Part shown: positions 5,124 through 46,842 of the stretch, in pieces
Layout: the number at the start of each line of letters is the position of its first letter
Position numbering within the stretch: the first letter of the stretch is position 1
Source of the DNA: Vicinamibacteria bacterium
GTDB lineage: Bacteria > Acidobacteriota > Vicinamibacteria > Fen-336
DNA: 64,000 nt
Assembly: GCA_035691285.1 (NCBI GenBank)
Contig: DASSJI010000156.1
Span: 17,858-81,857 of the forward strand
Direction: 5' to 3'
Notes under the pieces: model-generated
What the model saw: only the letters and a program-made list of their open reading frames with translations
Databases searched by the model: none
What the model was told of the DNA's origin: nothing
Position numbers and translations under genes: made by a program

Positions 5124-5129
5124 TATAAT
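5124..5129 (+). promoter_or_regulatory. TATAAT -10-like box 9 nt upstream of the lepB-paralog start
   Basis: Sequence cgTATAATcgggggctATG. The GGGGG may act as the SD. Part of a recurrent pattern (see 12176, 39814, 40659, 49549). Confidence 0.2.
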
Positions 5130-5137
5130 CGGGGGCT

Positions 5138-5836
5138 ATGGCGAAGACGACCTTGAAGGCCCGTGCCCACCACTACTGGCGGGAGTGGGTGAAGCCGCTC
5201 CTCGTGATCGCGATCGTCCTGGGCTCCCTGCGCTCCTCGGCCGCGGACTGGAACGACGTGCCCAGCCGCTCGATGGAGCCGACCATCCTGCCCGGCGACC
5301 GCATCTTCGTGAACAAGCTGGCGTACGACCTCAAGATTCCGTTCACGACCGTACGGCTGGCCCGCTGGGGCGATCCGCGGCGCGGGGACATCGTGGTGCT
5401 GTGGTCTCCGTACGATGGCAAGCGCCTCGTCAAGCGCGTCGTCGCCGTGCCGGGCGATGTCATCGAGGCCAGGAACCAGCGCCTGAGCGTGAACGGCAGG
5501 GCCGCCGGCTACGCGCCGCTCACCGACGAGGAGCGCCAGCGCACCGCGGGCCTCGGCTACGACGCCGGCAAGGTCGCCATCGAGACCGTGGACGGCCGCA
5601 GCCATGCCGTGATGGCCGACTCCCTCGAGGGCGTCGGCGCCTCCTTCGCTCCCGTCACGGTTCCGGCGGGCAAGTACTTCCTGATGGGAGACCATCGCGA
5701 CGACAGCTTCGACTCCCGCTTCTGGGGCTTCGCCGACCGCACCGCCATCGTGGGCCGCGCCTCGGCGGTGGCCCTCTCCTTCGACTTCGGCGCCTGGCGC
5801 CCCCGCTGGAGCCGGTTCTTCTCGGCGCTGCGGTGA
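5138..5836 (+). CDS. lepB: signal peptidase I (accessory paralog)
   Basis: Ser box SRSMEPTILPGDRIFVNK, Lys box KRVVAVPGD, C-terminal GDHRDDSFDSRFWGF. N-terminal TM helix. Confidence 0.9.
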   Translation: MAKTTLKARAHHYWREWVKPLLVIAIVLGSLRSSAADWNDVPSRSMEPTILPGDRIFVNKLAYDLKIPFTTVRLARWGDPRRGDIVVLWSPYDGKRLVKRVVAVPGDVIEARNQRLSVNGRAAGYAPLTDEERQRTAGLGYDAGKVAIETVDGRSHAVMADSLEGVGASFAPVTVPAGKYFLMGDHRDDSFDSRFWGFADRTAIVGRASAVALSFDFGAWRPRWSRFFSALR

Positions 5837-12175: not shown

Positions 12176-12181
12176 TATAAT
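12176..12181 (+). promoter_or_regulatory. TATAAT -10-like box upstream of the adaptor/ABC exporter operon
   Basis: cgtcgTATAATcccg lies 64 nt upstream of GTG 12246. A GGAGG SD lies 9 nt upstream of that GTG. Confidence 0.25.
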
Positions 12182-12245
12182 CCCGTGACGGCGGCGGTGT
12201 CGCCGCGCCAATCCCGCGAACGCGGTTCCCCGGAGGCTCCCACCC

Positions 12246-13448
12246 GTGTCCGACCTGAAGGGCGAGCTGGCCTCGCTCAAGATCGATCGCACGCCGCCGC
12301 CCCGGAATCCCTGGCGACGCTCGCTGCTGCTGCTCCTGCCGGCGGCGCTCGGACTGCTGGTCCTGTACGGCCTCCGGGCCAGGCAGACACTCGCCGCGCC
12401 GGAAGTCTCCACCGTCGAGGCGCGGGTCGAGGCGGGCGAGGCCGCCGGCGCGCCCGGCACGCCGCTCCTGACCGCCTCCGGCTACGTCGTGGCGCGGCGC
12501 AAGGCGGTGGTCTCGGCGAAGATCCAGGGACGGCTGGCGCAGCTCCGCGTGGAGGAGGGCAGCCGCGTCCGCGAGGGCGACGTCATCGCGCGCCTCGAGG
12601 ATGCCGACTTCGTCGCCTCGGTGGAGAGGGCGCGCGCCGCGGCGCAGCGTGCCGAGGCCGACCTGGGCGAGAACCGACGCCAGCTCGCGCTCGCCGAGAA
12701 GCTGGCACAGCAGGACGTGCTCGCCCTGGATCAGCGCGACGCGGCGCAGAGCCGGGTCAGGATCGCCGAGGCCGCACTCGCCCAGGCGCGGGCCGATCTG
12801 GTCTTCGCGGAGGCCCAGCTCCAGAACACCGTGATCCGGGCGCCCTTCACCGGCGTGGTCGTGAAGAAGATGGCCGAGGTGGGCGAGAGCGTGGCGCCGA
12901 TCCCGCCGGGCGTGAACATCTCGACGGCCTCGGGCGCGATCGTCGCGCTCGCCGACCTGGCCACCCTCGAGGTCGAGGCCGACGTGGCCGAGGCGAACGT
13001 CGCGAAGCTCTCTGACGCGCAGCCGGCCGAGGCGACCGTGGAGGCGTTCCCGGACCAGCGCTACAAGGCGGTGCTGCGCCAGGTGATCCCGACCGCGGAT
13101 CGCACCAAGGCGACCGTCCAGGTCAAGGTCACGATCCTCGACAAGGACAAGAATCTCAAGCCGGAGATGAGCGCCAAGGTGACGTTCCTCGAGAAGGAGG
13201 CGCCGCGAGACGAGGGAGCGCCCCCGCCCCGCGTGGTCACGGCGCCCGCCGACGCCGTGGCGAGCCGCGACGGCAGGTCGGTGGTGTTCGAGGTGGTCGA
13301 GGGCCGTGCGCGGCGGCGCGCCGTCAGCGTGGGCGGGGAGCGGCAGGGCCGGGTCGTGATCCGGGAGGGCCTCGCGGGGGGAGAGCTGCTCGTGGCGCGG
13401 CCGCCCGAAGGCCTGAAGGACGGCGACGCCGTCCGCGTCAAGGGGTAA
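12246..13448 (+). CDS. HlyD-family periplasmic adaptor (membrane fusion protein, MacA-like)
   Basis: N-terminal TM helix, coiled-coil hairpin, and beta-barrel domains ([21 protein letters not shown]). Confidence 0.8.
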
Positions 13449-30428: not shown

Positions 30429-31357
30429 ACGCCGTGCCAAGGAGAGTGCCCATGAGAGTGCGTATCGCCCTGGCCGCCGCGGTGCTGGCGGCCCCGGTCC
30501 TCTCCGCCGCGGCGGACGTCGCGGTGCTGAAGAGCACCGACACCCCGGCCTGGCGCCCCGCCATCGACGCCCTGCGGCGGGGCGCGGGCGCCCACGCGGT
30601 GACCGAGCACGACCTCCGGAACGACCGGGCCGAGGCGGACCGCGTGATCGCCGGCCTCAAGGGCAAGGCCGCCGTGATGGTGGCGATGGGCCCGCTCGCG
30701 GCGCAGGCGGCGCGCGAGGGCGCCCCCGAGATCCCCCTGGTCTTCTGCATGGTGCAGGACCCGGCCCGGCTCGGCCTGGCCGGGGCGCCCAACGTGACCG
30801 GCGTGTCCTTCCAGATCCCGATCAAGAACCAGCTCGCGGCCTTCCGGCTGGTCAACCCCCGCGCCGTGAAGATCGGCGCGATCTACTCCGAAGCCAACAC
30901 CGGCCCCCAGGTGGCCGAGGCCACCAAGTCCGCGGGCGTCGTGCGCCTCAACGTGGTCGGCCGACCCGTGGCCTCCGAGCGCGACGTGCCCGAGGCGCTG
31001 CGCGGTCTCTTGAAGGGCGGGGACGCCGTGGATGCGCTCTGGATCCCGCCCGACCCGATCCTGCTCGGAGACGAGTCGCGCCGCTACATCCTCGCGGAGA
31101 CCCTGAAGGCGGGCAAGCCCGTGTACAGCTTCTCCTCGGCCCTCGTGGCGGAGGGGGCGCTCGTCTCGAACGGTCCCGACATGGGCTCGATCGGCGACCA
31201 GGCCGCGGAGCTCGTGAACCGCATCGCCGGCGGCGAGAAGGGCAAGATCGAGATGCTGGTCCCCCGGGCCGAGCTCGTGATCAACAAGAAGATCGCCGAC
31301 AAGCTCAAGGTCGACGTTCCCATCGACGCGCTGAAGGCGGCGGGAAAGGTGTTTTGA
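30425..31357 (+). CDS. periplasmic substrate-binding-like protein (COG2984-type ABC periplasmic component fold) embedded in the che operon
   Basis: Signal peptide and type-I periplasmic binding protein-like alternating pattern. ATGA overlap with cheW; stop abuts the mcp start. Confidence 0.55.
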   Translation: MNAVPRRVPMRVRIALAAAVLAAPVLSAAADVAVLKSTDTPAWRPAIDALRRGAGAHAVTEHDLRNDRAEADRVIAGLKGKAAVMVAMGPLAAQAAREGAPEIPLVFCMVQDPARLGLAGAPNVTGVSFQIPIKNQLAAFRLVNPRAVKIGAIYSEANTGPQVAEATKSAGVVRLNVVGRPVASERDVPEALRGLLKGGDAVDALWIPPDPILLGDESRRYILAETLKAGKPVYSFSSALVAEGALVSNGPDMGSIGDQAAELVNRIAGGEKGKIEMLVPRAELVINKKIADKLKVDVPIDALKAAGKVF

Positions 31358-40658: not shown

Positions 40659-40664
40659 TATAAT
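40659..40664 (+). promoter_or_regulatory. TATAAT -10-like box 21 nt upstream of the AAA+ gene
   Basis: gtcgcTATAATgcgg. Confidence 0.2.
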
Positions 40665-40685
40665 GCGGTACTGAGGTACCGCTCG

Positions 40686-42152
40686 ATGCGAGCCACCACC
40701 CTCGGAGAGCTGAAGCGCGCCGGGCACGCCCGCGGCGCGTCGGTGCGGGACGAGCTGCGCCGCAACCTGATCGCCCGCATGCGGGCGGGGCAGCGTCTGT
40801 TCCCCGGGGTGCTGGGTTACGACGACACCGTCGTGCCCCAGGTCGTGAACGCGATCCTGTCGCGGCACCACATGATCCTGCTGGGCCTCAGGGGCCAGGC
40901 GAAGAGCCGCCTGATCCGCAGCTTGACGACGCTCCTCGACGCCCACGTGCCCGCCGTGCTGGGCTGCGAGATCCACGACGATCCCTTCGCGCCCCTGTGC
41001 CGGCGCTGCCGCGAGCTCCTCGCCGAGCGGGGCGACGACACGCCAATCGCCTGGCTCACCCCCGACGAGCGTTACGTGGAGAAGCTGGCGACCCCCGACG
41101 TCACCATCGCGGACATCATCGGGGACGTCGACCCGATCCGCGCCGCCCGCGGCGGCCACGACCTGTCCAGCGAGCTGACCATGCACTATGGGCTGCTGCC
41201 CCGCGCCCACCGCGGCGTCTTCGCCCTCAACGAGCTGCCAGACCTCGCCGGGCGCATCCAGGTGGGTCTCTTCAACATCCTTCAGGAAGGCGACGTCCAG
41301 ATCAAGGGCTACCCGATCCGGCTGCCCATCGACGTGACCATGGTGTTCACCGCCAACCCCGAGGACTACACGGCCCGCGGCAAGATCATCACGCCCTTGA
41401 AGGATCGCCTGGGGAGCGAGATCCGCACCCACTACCCGGCCACCCTGGAGCAAGGCGTCGCGATCACGCAGCAGGAGGCCTGGACCGCTCGCGGCGCGGA
41501 GCTGCGCGTTCCGCGTTACATCCGGGAGGTCGTCGAGGGCGTGGCCTTCGCGGCGCGCCGCGAGAAGAAGATCGACAAGCGGAGCGGCGTCAGCCAGCGG
41601 CTGCCGATCAGCGCCCTCGAGAACACCGTCTCGAACGCCGAGCGGCGGGCGCTGCTGAAGGGCGAGGCGCTCGTCGTGCCGCGGGTCGCGGACGTGTACG
41701 CGGCGCTGCCCGCGCTCACGGGCAAGTTCGAGCTGGAGTACGAGGGCGAGCTCATGGGGGGCGAGGCGGTGGCGCGCGACCTCATCAAGGCGGCGGTGGG
41801 AGAGGCGTTCTCCGTGCACCTGGGCTCGGCGGACATGAAGCCGGTCGTGGCCTTCTTCGAAGGCGGCGGGAGCGTGAAGCTCGATGGCGACGCCGGCGCC
41901 GCCGAGGTCGTCGCGCAGCTCCGCCGCGTGCCACACCTCTTCGACCACCTCGCGCCCCTCGGCGCCCGCCCGGGCGATCCGGAGCCGCTCGTGGCTTCGG
42001 CGGCGGAGTTCCTGCTCGAAGGCCTCTATTCGCGGAAGCAGATCGGCCGAAGCGACGACCGCGGCTTCGTGGCTCCCGAGCGCGTCCCCGAGAGCGACCT
42101 CGACATCGAGCGCCTGGAGCGCCTGCGCCGGCTCAAGAAGCAGGTCAACTAG
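40686..42152 (+). CDS. ChlI/BchI-like (Mg-chelatase family) AAA+ ATPase
   Basis: Walker A LGLRGQAKSRLIRSL. Walker B / sensor region VFALNELPDL ... VFTANPEDY. Arginine-finger region. Confidence 0.8.
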   Translation: MRATTLGELKRAGHARGASVRDELRRNLIARMRAGQRLFPGVLGYDDTVVPQVVNAILSRHHMILLGLRGQAKSRLIRSLTTLLDAHVPAVLGCEIHDDPFAPLCRRCRELLAERGDDTPIAWLTPDERYVEKLATPDVTIADIIGDVDPIRAARGGHDLSSELTMHYGLLPRAHRGVFALNELPDLAGRIQVGLFNILQEGDVQIKGYPIRLPIDVTMVFTANPEDYTARGKIITPLKDRLGSEIRTHYPATLEQGVAITQQEAWTARGAELRVPRYIREVVEGVAFAARREKKIDKRSGVSQRLPISALENTVSNAERRALLKGEALVVPRVADVYAALPALTGKFELEYEGELMGGEAVARDLIKAAVGEAFSVHLGSADMKPVVAFFEGGGSVKLDGDAGAAEVVAQLRRVPHLFDHLAPLGARPGDPEPLVASAAEFLLEGLYSRKQIGRSDDRGFVAPERVPESDLDIERLERLRRLKKQVN

Positions 42153-42156
42153 GACC

Positions 42157-43377
42157 ATGTCCGTCCGCTATCACCGCTACATCGCCGACCTCTGGGAGGA
42201 CCTGAACCTCGGGGAGCTGGTGGACGAGCTGTCCGACTACCTGCTGCAGAGCGGGTTCGGCCTCGAGCCAGGCGACCTCGAGGGCGACGAGCAGCAGGCC
42301 CTCCACGACGCGATCCTGGACGCGATCATGCGGCGCGGGCTCCTGTCGGACGAGGACCTGCAGAAGCTGATGTCCGAGGCCTCCGCGCTCGACCAGTTCC
42401 TGCAGAAGACCGTGGAGCGACTGCTCCGCGAAGGCTACCTGCGCCGGAGCGAGGCGCAGCCTTTCCACGACCCGACGGGCGGCGGGGGAGCCGACGGACC
42501 CGAGGGCCGGCCCCTGCGCTTCGAGCTCACGGAGAAGGGGACCGACTTCCTGGGCTATCGGGCGCTCCGGAACCTGCTCGGCTCCCTCGGCAAGTCCTCC
42601 TTCGGCCGTCACGACACCCGCGACCTCTCCACCGGCGTCGAGGCGTCGGGCCCGTCGAGGGGCTGGGAGTTCGGCGACACCATGAACCTCGACATCGGCG
42701 GGACGCTGCTCTCGGCCCTCTCCCGAGAGGGGCTGAGGCTGCCCCTCGACGTGGACTACAAGGACCTGCTCGTCCACCAGTGCGAGTACCAGAGCTCGTG
42801 CGCGACGGTGCTGATGCTCGACTGCTCCCACAGCATGATCCTCTACGGTGAGGACCGCTTCACGCCCGCGAAGCGAGTGGCCCTGGCCCTGTCTCACCTG
42901 ATCCGCACCCAGTACCCCGGCGACTCGCTGTCCCTGGTGCTCTTCCACGACTCCGCCGAGGAGGTGCCCCTGAAGCAGCTCGGCAACGTCCGCGTGGGCC
43001 CCTACTACACGAACACCCGCGAGGGCCTCCGCCTCGCGCAGCGGGTGCTCGCCCGGGAGCGGAAGGACATGCGCCAGATCGTGATGATCACCGACGGGAA
43101 GCCGTCGGCCCTGACCGAGGACGGCGGGCGCATCTACCGCAACCCCTTCGGCCTCGATCCCCGCGTCGTGGCCTTGACCCTCAAGGAGGTGGCCAACTGC
43201 CGGCGCCAGGGCATCCAGATCAACACGTTCATGCTCGCGCGCGACTGGGATCTCGTGGCGTTCGTCAAGAAGGTGACCGAGATCTGCCGGGGCAAGGCGT
43301 ATTTCACGACGCCCTGGTCCCTCGGCCAGTTCGTCTTGATGGACTATCTCAGGAACAAGGTCGAGAAGGTCCATTGA
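42157..43377 (+). CDS. von Willebrand factor A domain protein (MIDAS DxSxS), partner of the AAA+ ATPase
   Basis: Internal ATG of ORF 41884..43377, 4 nt after the AAA+ stop. LMLDCSHSM MIDAS motif, then ITDGKPS. Confidence 0.8.
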   Translation: MSVRYHRYIADLWEDLNLGELVDELSDYLLQSGFGLEPGDLEGDEQQALHDAILDAIMRRGLLSDEDLQKLMSEASALDQFLQKTVERLLREGYLRRSEAQPFHDPTGGGGADGPEGRPLRFELTEKGTDFLGYRALRNLLGSLGKSSFGRHDTRDLSTGVEASGPSRGWEFGDTMNLDIGGTLLSALSREGLRLPLDVDYKDLLVHQCEYQSSCATVLMLDCSHSMILYGEDRFTPAKRVALALSHLIRTQYPGDSLSLVLFHDSAEEVPLKQLGNVRVGPYYTNTREGLRLAQRVLARERKDMRQIVMITDGKPSALTEDGGRIYRNPFGLDPRVVALTLKEVANCRRQGIQINTFMLARDWDLVAFVKKVTEICRGKAYFTTPWSLGQFVLMDYLRNKVEKVH

Positions 43378-43601
43378 CGAGCGTCGTCACCCGCGAGCTC
43401 ACTCATCCCGTCCGCAAGAGCCGCGTGCGCCTGCGCGTCTACGAGCCGCAGACGGGCGGCTTCCTCGTCACCGAGGAGCGGCCCGGAGCCGCCACCGTCA
43501 TCGCGACGCTGGGCCTCTACGACCGCCGGGAGCAGGCCCTGGATCGCGTCGAGGCGCGGGTGGCGGAGCTCGTCCGCCAGCGCTACACGCCCTCGGCCTG
43601 A
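43374..43601 (+). CDS. small hypothetical ORF (75 aa), or N-terminal segment of the following membrane protein interrupted by an in-frame TGA
   Basis: TTG start overlaps the vWA stop. Same frame as 43653..45185, separated only by TGA at 43599..43601. Confidence 0.3.
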   Translation: MTSVVTRELTHPVRKSRVRLRVYEPQTGGFLVTEERPGAATVIATLGLYDRREQALDRVEARVAELVRQRYTPSA

Positions 43602-43652
43602 GGGGCGCTCCTGCGGGGCCTCGTCCTCGCCCTCCTGCTCACCGGAGCCGCC

Positions 43653-45185
43653 GTGGCGGTCCACCGGGAGGCCAACGAGACGAGCCTCGACCTCTACGAC
43701 CAGTACTCCCTGCCGGGCTTCGACGCCCATGTGTACATGGCCATGGCCGACGCGCCCTCGGTGTTCACGCTGCCGCCCTGGGGCTGGCGGCTGCTGGGCC
43801 CCGCGCTCGTGCACGCGCTGCCGTTGCCTTCGGCGCGCGGCTTCTCCTGGGTCACCCACGCCTTCCTGACGGCGTCCGGCGGGCTGCTCTTCCTGTTCCT
43901 GCGCCGGCTCGGGTCCGGGCCGCAGGCGGCGCTCCTCGGCGTCGCCGCCTTCGCCTTCGCGCAGCCGGTGGAGGCCTCCGTGGCCTATCCCTTCCTGGCC
44001 GAGCCCCTGACGCTCGTCTGCGTGCTCGCGCTCCTCTGGGCTGTCGAGGCCGGCTGCGGCGCCGGGCCGCTGGCACTCGCCGCCACGGCGGGCGCCCTGT
44101 CGAAGGAGATCGTCATCCTGCTCCTGCCCGTGATCTTCTTCGCGCGGCGCGATCGCGACGGGACCCCCCGGGCCCTCGCCACGACCCTCGCGGCCGCAGC
44201 GCCCGCGGCCCTCGCGACGTTCCTCGTGCGGTACGTCTGGGCGTCCGCCCGCCCCGCGCCGCTCGCCGCGGACCAGGAGGCGGTCTGGCTGGCGCTGTGG
44301 CGGCTCGTCGACGGCGCCGGGCAGTGGCTGCCGGCCGCCGCGCTTTCAGGCTTGACGCCCCTCGCGATGCTCGGCGCCTTGCGGGCTCCAGGGCGGCTGC
44401 TCCTGCGCCGCTACGGGTACGGCCTGGCGGTGACCTGGGCCCTCCCCTTCGCTGCATCGGTCTACACCGGCGAGAAGTCGGCGCCCTTCTTCCTCGACGA
44501 CATCCCGCGGCTGCTCCTCTACGCGCTGCCGTTCGTCGTGGCGCTCGCCCTCGTCGCCTGGGACGCCGCCTTCGCGCACCTCGAGCCGCCCGCCGTGCGC
44601 CTCCACTACGCCACGGGAGCGGCGCTGGTCACGAGCCTGCTGGCCCTGTTGCTGGGCGCTTGGCCGGCGTTGGCACTCGATCGCTACCGTCGCGCGGACC
44701 TCTCCGGGCCGCGCGACGGCCGCCTGGTCCTGGCCTTTTGTCGCGAGAGCCTGGCCGAGGCGCGTCGGCTGGAGCAGGGACGACAGGTCGACTACGACCC
44801 CGAGCGCCGCAGCTTCGTGCCGCGCAAGAGCTACCCGGAGCTCCTGGGCCGGATGCGCTGGTTCCTGCGAGACGGTTGGGGGCCGGGCGCACCTTACCGT
44901 GTCGGGCCGGTCGTCACCCGGTCGGCGAGCGCTGCCCTGGTGCTGCCGTGCTTGCGCCCCGAGGACCTGAACGCGACCCTCTCGCTGCAGGCCCCGCGGG
45001 AGATGCGCGTGCGCGTGGCCGTCAACGGGCGCGTGGTCGGCGAGCTCGTGGCCCGCCCCGAGCCGGACCGGCTGCGCGTCCTGGTGCCGGGCGGCTTGCT
45101 CTTCCGCGGTGACAACGAGCTGCGCCTGCTGGCGCCCGAGCCTGGCTTGCGACTCCTCGGGCTGCGGGTGCGGGCGGCTCGCTGA
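43653..45185 (+). CDS. polytopic membrane protein (>=10 TM), GT-C-like / unknown function
   Basis: Multiple hydrophobic helices and a soluble C-terminal domain. The nearest start is GTG 43653, but an in-frame hydrophobic segment precedes it. Confidence 0.55.
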   Translation: MAVHREANETSLDLYDQYSLPGFDAHVYMAMADAPSVFTLPPWGWRLLGPALVHALPLPSARGFSWVTHAFLTASGGLLFLFLRRLGSGPQAALLGVAAFAFAQPVEASVAYPFLAEPLTLVCVLALLWAVEAGCGAGPLALAATAGALSKEIVILLLPVIFFARRDRDGTPRALATTLAAAAPAALATFLVRYVWASARPAPLAADQEAVWLALWRLVDGAGQWLPAAALSGLTPLAMLGALRAPGRLLLRRYGYGLAVTWALPFAASVYTGEKSAPFFLDDIPRLLLYALPFVVALALVAWDAAFAHLEPPAVRLHYATGAALVTSLLALLLGAWPALALDRYRRADLSGPRDGRLVLAFCRESLAEARRLEQGRQVDYDPERRSFVPRKSYPELLGRMRWFLRDGWGPGAPYRVGPVVTRSASAALVLPCLRPEDLNATLSLQAPREMRVRVAVNGRVVGELVARPEPDRLRVLVPGGLLFRGDNELRLLAPEPGLRLLGLRVRAAR

Positions 45186-45192
45186 TCCTGGG

Positions 45193-46842
45193 ATGGGGTC
45201 CCTGCTGCGCGTCCACGCCCCGGCGCTCCTCGTCGTGACGGCGGCGGCGGTCCACCTCTACGGCGCGGCGCTCTCGAGTCGCGCTTTCCAGACCCACGAG
45301 GCCCTCCACCCCTACGAAAGGGTGCGACAGATCCTCGCCGAGGTCGCGCGCGGTCACGTTCCGCAGTCCTTCCCCGATGCCGTGGGCGGGCTGGGCTCGG
45401 CCTTCCCACGCTACTATCCCCCGCTGGCCTACGCTGCGGCCTCGGCGCTCGCGGGCCTCATGAACAACGCCGCGCTCGGCGTGAACCTCGCCTTCTTCCT
45501 GGCCGCCCTGCTCACGGGCGTCGCGACCTACTGGGCGGTCCATGCCGTCGCCCGCGACCCCTGGCTGGCGCTCGGCGGGGCGCTGCTTGCGCTCGCGGCC
45601 CCCTATCGGCTGGCTCAGGTCTTCGTGCGAGGCGCGCTGGCGGAGTCCTGGTCCCTCGTGTTCTATCCCGTGGCCTTGCTCGGAGCCTTCCGCGCCGTCT
45701 CGGGCCGCCCGGCGTGGCACTTGCCCCTGGCGGTCGCCGGGCTCCTGCTCACGCACCAGGTCACGCTGCCGTACGCCCTGCCCCTCTTCGCCGCGCTCGC
45801 CTTCTGGGCCTGGCGGCGACAAGGCCACGGAGCCCTCGGACGCCTGGTCGCGTTCGCGGCGCTGGGCGTCGGCCTGGCGCTGTTCTTCCTCTTGCCGCAG
45901 CGGGCAGGGCTCGGCTCGCTCAACGTCGCCGACCGCGCTCTCATGGGCGCGACGCCCGAGGCGGTCTCTGCGCACCGGGTCCGCGCGGCCCAGCTCTTCG
46001 AGCTGCCGCGACCCGATCGCTGGTGGGGCCTCTCACGACCCGAGCCCGAGCACGACGGGATGAGCTTCTTCCCCGGGTGGGCGCCGCTGCTCGCGCCGCC
46101 CCTGGCGATTGCGGCCGGCTTCATGCGCCGGCGGACGGCGGGGCCGGGCCTGCAGCTCGGATCGATCCTGGCAGGGTTCTCGGTCCTCGCCCTCGCGTTC
46201 GTGGTGGCGCCGGAGCCGTGGCTCAGGCTCCTGCCGGGCGTGCTCGGGTACATCCAGTTCCCCTGGCGCCTCCTCGGGCTCGCCGGCCTGTGCTCGGCGA
46301 TGGCCGTGCCGCTCCTCGTCGGGGCTCTCGGTCCCTCACGGCCGACGCGCTTCGTCGTGGCCGCCCTCGGCGTGGCAGCCGTGGCGTCCGTGCCGTCCTT
46401 CGAGCGCCAGGCGCTGCTGCCGGCGGCGAGCGACCTGAGCGGGTCCCCGACCGGCAGCGGCGGGGGCCTCGGCCTGACGGTCCAGGGCGAGTACCTGCCG
46501 AAGGCGTTCGACCCCGCCTCGCCGAGGCCCAGCGGGCCGGAGCTGCCCGGCGGCCGCGTGGTCGCCTGGTCGCGCGACGGCGCGGACATGACCGTGACCG
46601 TCGAAGCGCCACGCGGCGGGGAGCTGCGCCTGCCCCTCTTCTTCTTCGACTTCTATCGCGCCCGTGACGGAGACGGCCACGCCCTTCCCACGCTTGCCTC
46701 GGGCCCCTGGCTCGCCGTCCGGGTGCCGCCCGGGACGAGCGAGGTGCGCCTCGGCCAGGGGCTCACGCGACTCGCCCTGGTCGGCATCGTGCTGAGCCTC
46801 GCCGCACTGGCCGTCTGGCTCGACCTGGTCCTCCGTCGCTGA
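45193..46842 (+). CDS. polytopic membrane protein (>=10 TM) with C-terminal periplasmic domain, unknown function
   Basis: Internal ATG of ORF 45109..46842. N-terminus MGSLLRVHAPALLVVTAAAVHLY. Confidence 0.6.
   Translation: MGSLLRVHAPALLVVTAAAVHLYGAALSSRAFQTHEALHPYERVRQILAEVARGHVPQSFPDAVGGLGSAFPRYYPPLAYAAASALAGLMNNAALGVNLAFFLAALLTGVATYWAVHAVARDPWLALGGALLALAAPYRLAQVFVRGALAESWSLVFYPVALLGAFRAVSGRPAWHLPLAVAGLLLTHQVTLPYALPLFAALAFWAWRRQGHGALGRLVAFAALGVGLALFFLLPQRAGLGSLNVADRALMGATPEAVSAHRVRAAQLFELPRPDRWWGLSRPEPEHDGMSFFPGWAPLLAPPLAIAAGFMRRRTAGPGLQLGSILAGFSVLALAFVVAPEPWLRLLPGVLGYIQFPWRLLGLAGLCSAMAVPLLVGALGPSRPTRFVVAALGVAAVASVPSFERQALLPAASDLSGSPTGSGGGLGLTVQGEYLPKAFDPASPRPSGPELPGGRVVAWSRDGADMTVTVEAPRGGELRLPLFFFDFYRARDGDGHALPTLASGPWLAVRVPPGTSEVRLGQGLTRLALVGIVLSLAALAVWLDLVLRR

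Follow-up and report, generated by a model that had tools for sequence, protein, structure and literature searches.

The subject of this analysis is a five-gene unit on the + strand of a 64-kb stretch of DNA (hereafter the window) from a metagenome-assembled genome (MAG) of Vicinamibacteria (Acidobacteriota). The unit encodes an AAA+ ATPase, a von Willebrand factor A (vWA) protein, a small soluble protein and two membrane proteins. The window has ~71% GC, and its ATPase was 100% identical to a protein of a Vicinamibacteria MAG. The reading we prefer, with about an even chance of being correct, is that of an ancient cytoplasmic ATPase/vWA pair that in one lineage gained envelope glycosylation genes in its operon, with co-regulation as the only link. 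The genes would form one transcription unit with its own −10 element and two parts of different age. The first part would be an ancient cytoplasmic two-gene module, made up of a ChlI-like AAA+ ATPase and a vWA partner with a metal ion-dependent adhesion site (MIDAS). On the model of ChlI/ChlD, CobS/CobT and NorQ/NorD, the vWA protein would hold another protein through its MIDAS metal site, and the ATPase ring, driven by ATP, would pull on that protein or remodel it. The second part would be an extension of the Vicinamibacteria clade, consisting of a 75-amino-acid (aa) soluble protein translationally coupled to the vWA gene and a predicted GT-C glycosyltransferase (membrane protein 1), whose most likely reaction would be sugar transfer onto an envelope acceptor with a polyprenyl-phosphate donor. 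Another GT-C enzyme, of the PTPS_related type (membrane protein 2), would be an optional add-on, and co-transcription would mean co-regulation of the pair and the glycosyltransferase. The features of the unit, in window positions, are as follows.

40659-40664 and 40673-40676, + strand: TATAAT −10 element and GAGG Shine-Dalgarno sequence, both within the 46-nt gap between a coiled-coil/GAF gene and the ATPase gene.
40686-42152, + strand: ChlI-like AAA+ ATPase of the Rv0958-type family, 488 aa; stop codon TAG at 42150-42152.
42157-43377, + strand: vWA protein with intact MIDAS, of the Rv0959-type family, 406 aa; ATG start, TGA at 43375-43377.
43374-43601, + strand: small soluble protein, 75 aa, of a family without Pfam or PDB match; TTG start at 43374-43376.
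43611-45185, + strand: membrane protein 1, predicted GT-C fold followed by a C-terminal periplasmic CBM35/CBM6-like beta-sandwich; probable CTG start (annotated GTG at 43653), TGA at 45183-45185.
45193-46842, + strand: membrane protein 2, predicted GT-C fold of the PTPS_related/YfhO-like group, a variable accessory gene; ATG start.

The five open reading frames (ORFs), their spacings, the TATAAT hexamer and the DCSHSM motif of the MIDAS were all found in the ORF list and the sequence as an earlier note on this DNA had given them. As read from the sequence, 4 nt separate the ATPase and vWA genes and the TTG of the 75-codon ORF overlaps the vWA TGA; the ATG of membrane protein 2 begins 7 nt past the TGA of membrane protein 1. 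Coding of the four long ORFs was backed by GC content at third (0.91-0.94) and second (0.46-0.59) codon positions.

The distribution of the pair carries the preferred reading. A genome scan from the ATPase side yielded 80 loci from other Acidobacteriota, Gemmatimonadota and one Trueperaceae (Deinococcota) MAG, with flanks of ~10 kb. By tblastn, a vWA gene accompanied the ATPase gene in 69 of 86 loci with an ATPase match. Within 10 kb, the small ORF, membrane protein 1 and membrane protein 2 were found at 0/80 loci outside the clade (tblastn and profile hidden Markov models), as were the GAF gene and che genes (0/80). Neither the small ORF nor a GT-C gene was found near the pair in Micromonospora or on a Planctomycetota-like contig. 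The pair itself was conserved at 52-67% identity in lineages without the downstream genes, and its family is found in at least six phyla, with members in Acidobacteriota, Gemmatimonadota, Deinococcota, Planctomycetota, Deltaproteobacteria and Actinomycetota. ATPase identity across phyla was 57-67%, and in a search of representatives the Micromonospora ATPase was 47% identical to that of the window. The ATPase family comprised 763 representative clusters at E<1e-30, with at least 8000 candidates in the homologue search, and is far larger than the families of membrane protein 1 (267 matches) and membrane protein 2 (36 matches).

Every other sampled lineage keeps the pair in the absence of the membrane proteins, and the pair carries no extra domain where it is linked to them; they are therefore not its core client. 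Judged from gene content, that client must rather be something common to all pair-bearing lineages. The earlier note had named the two membrane proteins as the likely clients, a proposal that is only partly supported: these 80 outside loci and the occurrence of membrane protein homologues away from the pair speak against it. Examples are a distant homologue of membrane protein 1 (locus L005; loci are cited by L number) and one of membrane protein 2 (L091), the latter among glycosyltransferase, short-chain dehydrogenase/reductase, YfhO and pilin genes; neither has the pair nearby.

Outside the clade, the gene 3′ of the vWA gene was heterogeneous (CHASE hybrid kinase, SLT-TPR, FtsH, rhomboid, hydrolase, RCC1). 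A third gene conserved beside the pair across phyla was considered and rejected. The sole recurrent neighbor across lineages, a ~207-aa protein with only a LON substrate-binding domain (PF02190, E 4e-28), adjoins the pair in ~28/84 loci, about one third, and is absent from the window. It lies upstream of the pair in Terriglobia and just 3′ of the vWA gene in some Vicinamibacterales (for example L023:8988-9611, L030:12795-13607 and L059:12865-13488, among L008-L063). Taken with the LonB-like similarity of the ATPase described below, this neighbor could point to a role of the pair in protein quality control. A membrane protease was at times encoded 3′ of the vWA gene, namely a rhomboid in Terriglobia (L014:12975-14420, L016:13295-14248) and FtsH in Gemmatimonadaceae (L087:14795-16687). 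Together, the membrane proteases, the LON-domain neighbor and ClpB in the window's clade give a weak hint of a proteostasis theme. In Gemmatimonadota (L061, L067, L073, L079, L081, L085, L087) the ATPase and vWA genes were 3-5 kb apart, separated by a cytidylate-kinase-like gene and an opposite-strand major facilitator superfamily transporter gene.

The vWA protein of the window matched Pfam VWA_2. Its MIDAS is intact, as had been read from the DCSHSM motif: the 19-residue block LDCSHSMILYGEDRFTPAK was almost invariant in 95 homologues, likewise the downstream Thr and Asp, giving D-C-S-H-S, then T, then D. The metal-site motifs LDCSHSM, GPYYTNT and ITDGKPS were nearly invariant (95 sequences). 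In vWA homologues at 78-90% identity, PF27098 (Rv0959_3rd) stands next to the VWA domain. The same domain was found in the Micromonospora and Planctomycetota-like vWA partners, of which the Micromonospora one also carries Mb0984_helical (PF27532). Because vWA homologues carry these two domains, the pair was placed in the Rv0958/Rv0959 family of M. tuberculosis. Rv0958/Rv0959 and MSMEG_5512, a 'possible magnesium chelatase' with its vWA partner, have the same two-gene architecture as the window pair. Unlike the vWA protein of the window, the actinobacterial partner is longer (650 aa) and has an extra helical domain, and in Micromonospora neither the small ORF nor a GT-C gene follows the vWA gene. 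No functional study of Rv0958, Rv0959, MSMEG_5512 or COG4867 was found in the literature, where these genes appear only in listings.

The ATPase matched Pfam Mg_chelatase and Sigma54_activat. A PDB profile search with its family returned ChlI/BchI as the closest solved relatives (E 4e-15), and archaeal LonB ATPase modules came next. Its description as ChlI-like was thereby upheld, but the Walker motifs, which had been called ChlI/BchI-like, deviate. Walker A (residues 67-74) reads GLRGQAKS, family-wide GLRGQ[AG]K[ST], where the canonical form is GxxGxGK[ST]; Walker B (residues 179-187) reads hhhhNE (hhhhNELPDL), with a nearly invariant Asn and an invariant Glu, where the canonical form is hhhhDE. 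Operon-encoded AAA+ and vWA (MIDAS) proteins are likewise found in the MoxR-class pairs NorQ/NorD, CbbQ/CbbO, RavA/ViaA and CoxD/CoxE. The window pair differs from these in its ATPase and in that no client gene is kept beside it across lineages. A MoxR-class identity of the ATPase was rejected, the AAA_5 score of 16.9 bits being under the Pfam cut-off of 22 and no AAA_3 match being found with Pfam. An anti-phage defence system was also rejected, as PADLOC models gave one weak generic AAA match (E 0.0012).

Conservation inside the clade was followed by a metagenome scan from membrane protein 1, which gave 80 loci, 45 of them informative (at least 1.5 kb of upstream sequence). A vWA gene lay directly upstream of membrane protein 1 in 28 of these 45, with the ATPase gene also visible in 26, and was missing upstream in 17. 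Among the 28 vWA-adjacent loci, the small ORF stood between the two genes in at least 20 and membrane protein 2 was present in one. In a neighbor-joining tree of membrane protein 1, vWA-adjacent copies were on most deep branches, the deepest included, and unlinked copies made up few clades. On the deepest linked branches, identity was ~60% for the ATPase and ~40% for membrane protein 1. Since vWA-adjacent copies fill most deep branches of this sequence tree, the adjacency looks ancestral for the membrane protein 1 family.

The window, its close relatives and the 28 metagenomic loci amount to ~36 distinct vWA-linked loci. Membrane protein 2 is sporadic, occurring in three of them (the window, L001 and L088, with L094 and L088 representing one contig). 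All five genes are present in L001 and L088, whereas L089 and L090 are without membrane protein 2, and L003 and L006 without membrane protein 2 and the small ORF. In L002, with an ATPase 80% identical, EAL and PilZ genes of cyclic di-GMP (c-di-GMP) signaling replace the three downstream genes (L002:12834-14416). The earlier note had named a lack of conservation of the module as a unit in related genomes as evidence against its proposal. Conservation held for the order ATPase-vWA-small ORF-membrane protein 1, which runs across a deep Vicinamibacteria clade, and failed for all five genes together, given the rarity of membrane protein 2 and the pair without downstream genes outside the clade. In L124 (1-2035) and L125 (6058-8446), the coiled-coil/GAF gene of the che cluster is followed immediately by membrane protein 1, and genes for the ATPase, the vWA protein and the small ORF are missing between them; the ATPase-vWA-small ORF block was seemingly removed or never inserted there.

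The small ORF was recovered in 38 copies of 74-94 aa, always between the vWA gene and membrane protein 1. Its members share the motifs HPTQAS, VRLxVYE, GGFLVTEE and TLGFF; they also have a helical tail and vary in a loop insertion. Pfam gave no match among 22 members at E<=1, and the search for PDB relatives gave no meaningful match. A WGR-like fold was considered and not supported, there being no Pfam WGR or solved-structure match. By its conservation the 75-aa ORF is a real gene, representing a new family.

The first transmembrane segment (TM1) of membrane protein 1 is encoded between the small-ORF TGA and the annotated GTG at 43653 (window 43599-43660). Public gene calls of membrane protein 1 are truncated, as the annotated GTG cuts off TM1. 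In the window and eight close relatives (L001, L088-L094, L103), the sole start-like codon before TM1 is a CTG, at 43611 in the window, which corresponds to the L in a conserved L-R-G motif. It lies 5-8 nt past a GAGG sharing bases with the small-ORF TGA, and a TTG occupies its position in several more distant relatives (L122, L130, L146, L147, L149, L154, L157, L164, L170). This arrangement is most simply read as translational coupling, with CTG as the start codon. Fusion of the small ORF to membrane protein 1, whether through a TGA read-through or a frameshift, was rejected because the frame relation varies among loci: the two genes share a frame in the window and L088 and are offset by +1 in L001, L089 and L090.

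No Pfam or NCBIfam family matched membrane protein 1. Its structure model (predicted local distance difference test, pLDDT, 92.5) has a GT-C transmembrane fold. D40, in LPGFDA right after TM1, was invariant in 52 sequences, as expected for the conserved acidic residue of the first extracytoplasmic loop of GT-C enzymes, and has a predicted catalytic role. Membrane protein 2 scored above the gathering threshold of Pfam PTPS_related (PF10131, GT-C clan) and was also modeled with a GT-C fold. Both membrane proteins are annotatable as GT-C glycosyltransferases, in keeping with the guess of the earlier note. The same note had named, as evidence against a dedicated module, a match of the membrane proteins to a well-known family whose function is independent of AAA+/vWA partners; the GT-C superfamily was matched. 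The predicted fold is common to PMT, ArnT, AglB/PglB/STT3, Aft/Emb and YfhO/PTPS_related, from which membrane protein 1 differs by its lack of a Pfam or NCBIfam family and its added CBM35/6-like C-terminal domain. The GT-C superfamily consists of lipid-linked-sugar transferases that work at the outward-facing side of the membrane, with active sites facing the periplasm. To our knowledge, GT-C enzymes have no need of an AAA+/vWA partner, and we know of no characterized member encoded in an operon with such a pair.

A possible but tentative alternative is dedicated maturation or regulation, in which the ATPase/vWA pair and the 75-aa protein as adaptor act directly on the cytoplasmic face of membrane protein 1 to assemble, activate or gate it. 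This narrows the idea of the earlier note to one client. Several of the observations that speak for it also weigh against co-regulation as the only link. Adjacency of vWA, with or without the small ORF, and membrane protein 1 was seen in 28/45 informative loci, looks ancestral and persists on most deep branches down to ~40% identity. Such conservation of adjacency is usual for functionally coupled genes. The small ORF occurs solely between these two genes, start and stop junctions overlap or nearly so, and the stop region of the small ORF contains the Shine-Dalgarno sequence of membrane protein 1. There is also precedent for AAA+/vWA pairs servicing integral membrane proteins, as NorQ/NorD services the membrane enzyme cNOR (PMC9976466, PMC13036017). 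The preferred reading is weakened further in that its remodeling mechanism is drawn wholly by analogy and that, with Asn for Asp in Walker B, ATP hydrolysis by the ATPase is only predicted.

On the other side, lineages without membrane protein 1 conserve the pair just as well and with no extra domain. Membrane protein 1 paralogues occur without the pair, and in L124 and L125 the gene directly follows the GAF gene. The corresponding slot in L002 holds EAL and PilZ genes. GT-C active sites are periplasmic, and the characterized members, as far as we know, need no cytoplasmic ATPase. It is rather doubtful that in Vicinamibacteria a Rv0958/Rv0959-type AAA+/MIDAS motor with the 75-aa adaptor exerts direct control over, or matures, a GT-C glycosyltransferase facing the periplasm. 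If true, this would be a new coupling of ATP-driven remodeling to lipid-linked envelope glycosylation and the first handle on the role of a pan-bacterial pair.

Transcription of the unit was examined through the TATAAT hexamer, found three times in the 64-kb window against 0.08 expected. At the same site 5′ of the ATPase gene, the hexamer recurs in L001, L002, L003, L088, L089 and L090, with TATGAT in L006 (7/7 relatives), and is followed by a GGAGG-type ribosome site. The −10-like element noticed earlier is thus a conserved one with a single variant. A consensus scan found no −35 match for it. Sigma-70 promoter and intrinsic terminator scans within the unit gave nothing usable, with no terminator-like site between genes. 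Because of the conserved TATAAT before the ATPase gene, the close gene junctions and the lack of a terminator-like site between genes, the unit is probably transcribed on its own, from ~40671 through 46842, and is not merely the tail of a che operon. The other two hexamers (window 5124-5129 and 12176-12181) lie a few bases 5′ of long + strand ORFs (open frames 5129-5836 and 12189-13448). Their placement suggests that this organism has mRNAs with very short leaders or with none.

Upstream on the + strand are genes for CheY, CheA, CheW, a methyl-accepting chemotaxis protein (MCP), a HEAT-repeat protein, CheR, CheB, a PatA_N-REC-GAF protein and the coiled-coil/GAF protein. A gap of ~0.9 kb separates the CheW and MCP genes (window 30429-31357). 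Downstream, a convergent ClpB gene ends 8 nt beyond membrane protein 2. In two relatives, a gene for a spermine-synthase-domain protein of 667-689 aa, not present in the window, lies 3′ of the glycosyltransferase gene(s) and before ClpB (L088:11248-13317, L089:9612-11615). Rfam and tRNA scans of the window gave no matches.

Some che-like pathways control exopolysaccharide, and on this model the unit would be an output branch in which the PatA_N-REC-GAF and coiled-coil/GAF proteins control the pair, the glycosyltransferases or both, so that envelope glycosylation follows a sensed signal. We consider this unlikely. In its favor, the che cluster lies directly upstream on the same strand, the coiled-coil/GAF gene (71-91% identity) adjoins the unit in 25/36 vWA-linked loci, L124 and L125 retain che genes, GAF gene and membrane protein 1 without the pair, and c-di-GMP genes sit in the same slot of L002. 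Against it stand the separate conserved promoter before the ATPase gene, the retention of GAF-ATPase-vWA-membrane protein 1 without che genes in L006 and L090, and the pair elsewhere without che or GAF neighbors. The link is an adjacency in one clade only, and the phrase 'appended to the che cluster' in the earlier note holds for position alone.

A true ATP-dependent Mg or Co chelatase, with the ATPase as I/S subunit and the vWA protein as D/T subunit, was rejected as very improbable: ChlI/ChlD and CobS/CobT likewise join an AAA+ ring to a MIDAS vWA subunit, include the closest solved ATPase fold by sequence and draw weak NCBIfam matches, but the scores on the BchI-ChlI, BchD-ChlD and cobaltochelatase models (31.8, 36 and 44.5 bits) are far under the cut-offs (467, 500 and 779), Walker B has Asn in place of Asp, the vWA protein lacks an AAA-like N-terminal domain (Pfam), no large substrate-binding subunit of CobN/ChlH type was seen among called genes or recurrent neighbors at any locus examined (~10 kb flanks, not whole genomes), and the family occurs in non-phototrophs of six phyla.

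What is new here is the operon context; the AAA+/vWA pair and the GT-C enzymes are of already known kinds, and nothing categorically new was found. The highly conserved pair is a more interesting object than its operon extension, as it is very strongly conserved, includes Rv0958/Rv0959 of M. tuberculosis and has no function assigned. Its independence from the membrane proteins guards against the spread of a wrong 'client' annotation. Where the pair is fixed in an operon with the small protein and a glycosyltransferase, as in this clade, there is a concrete partner set and, with it, a handle on the role of the pair.

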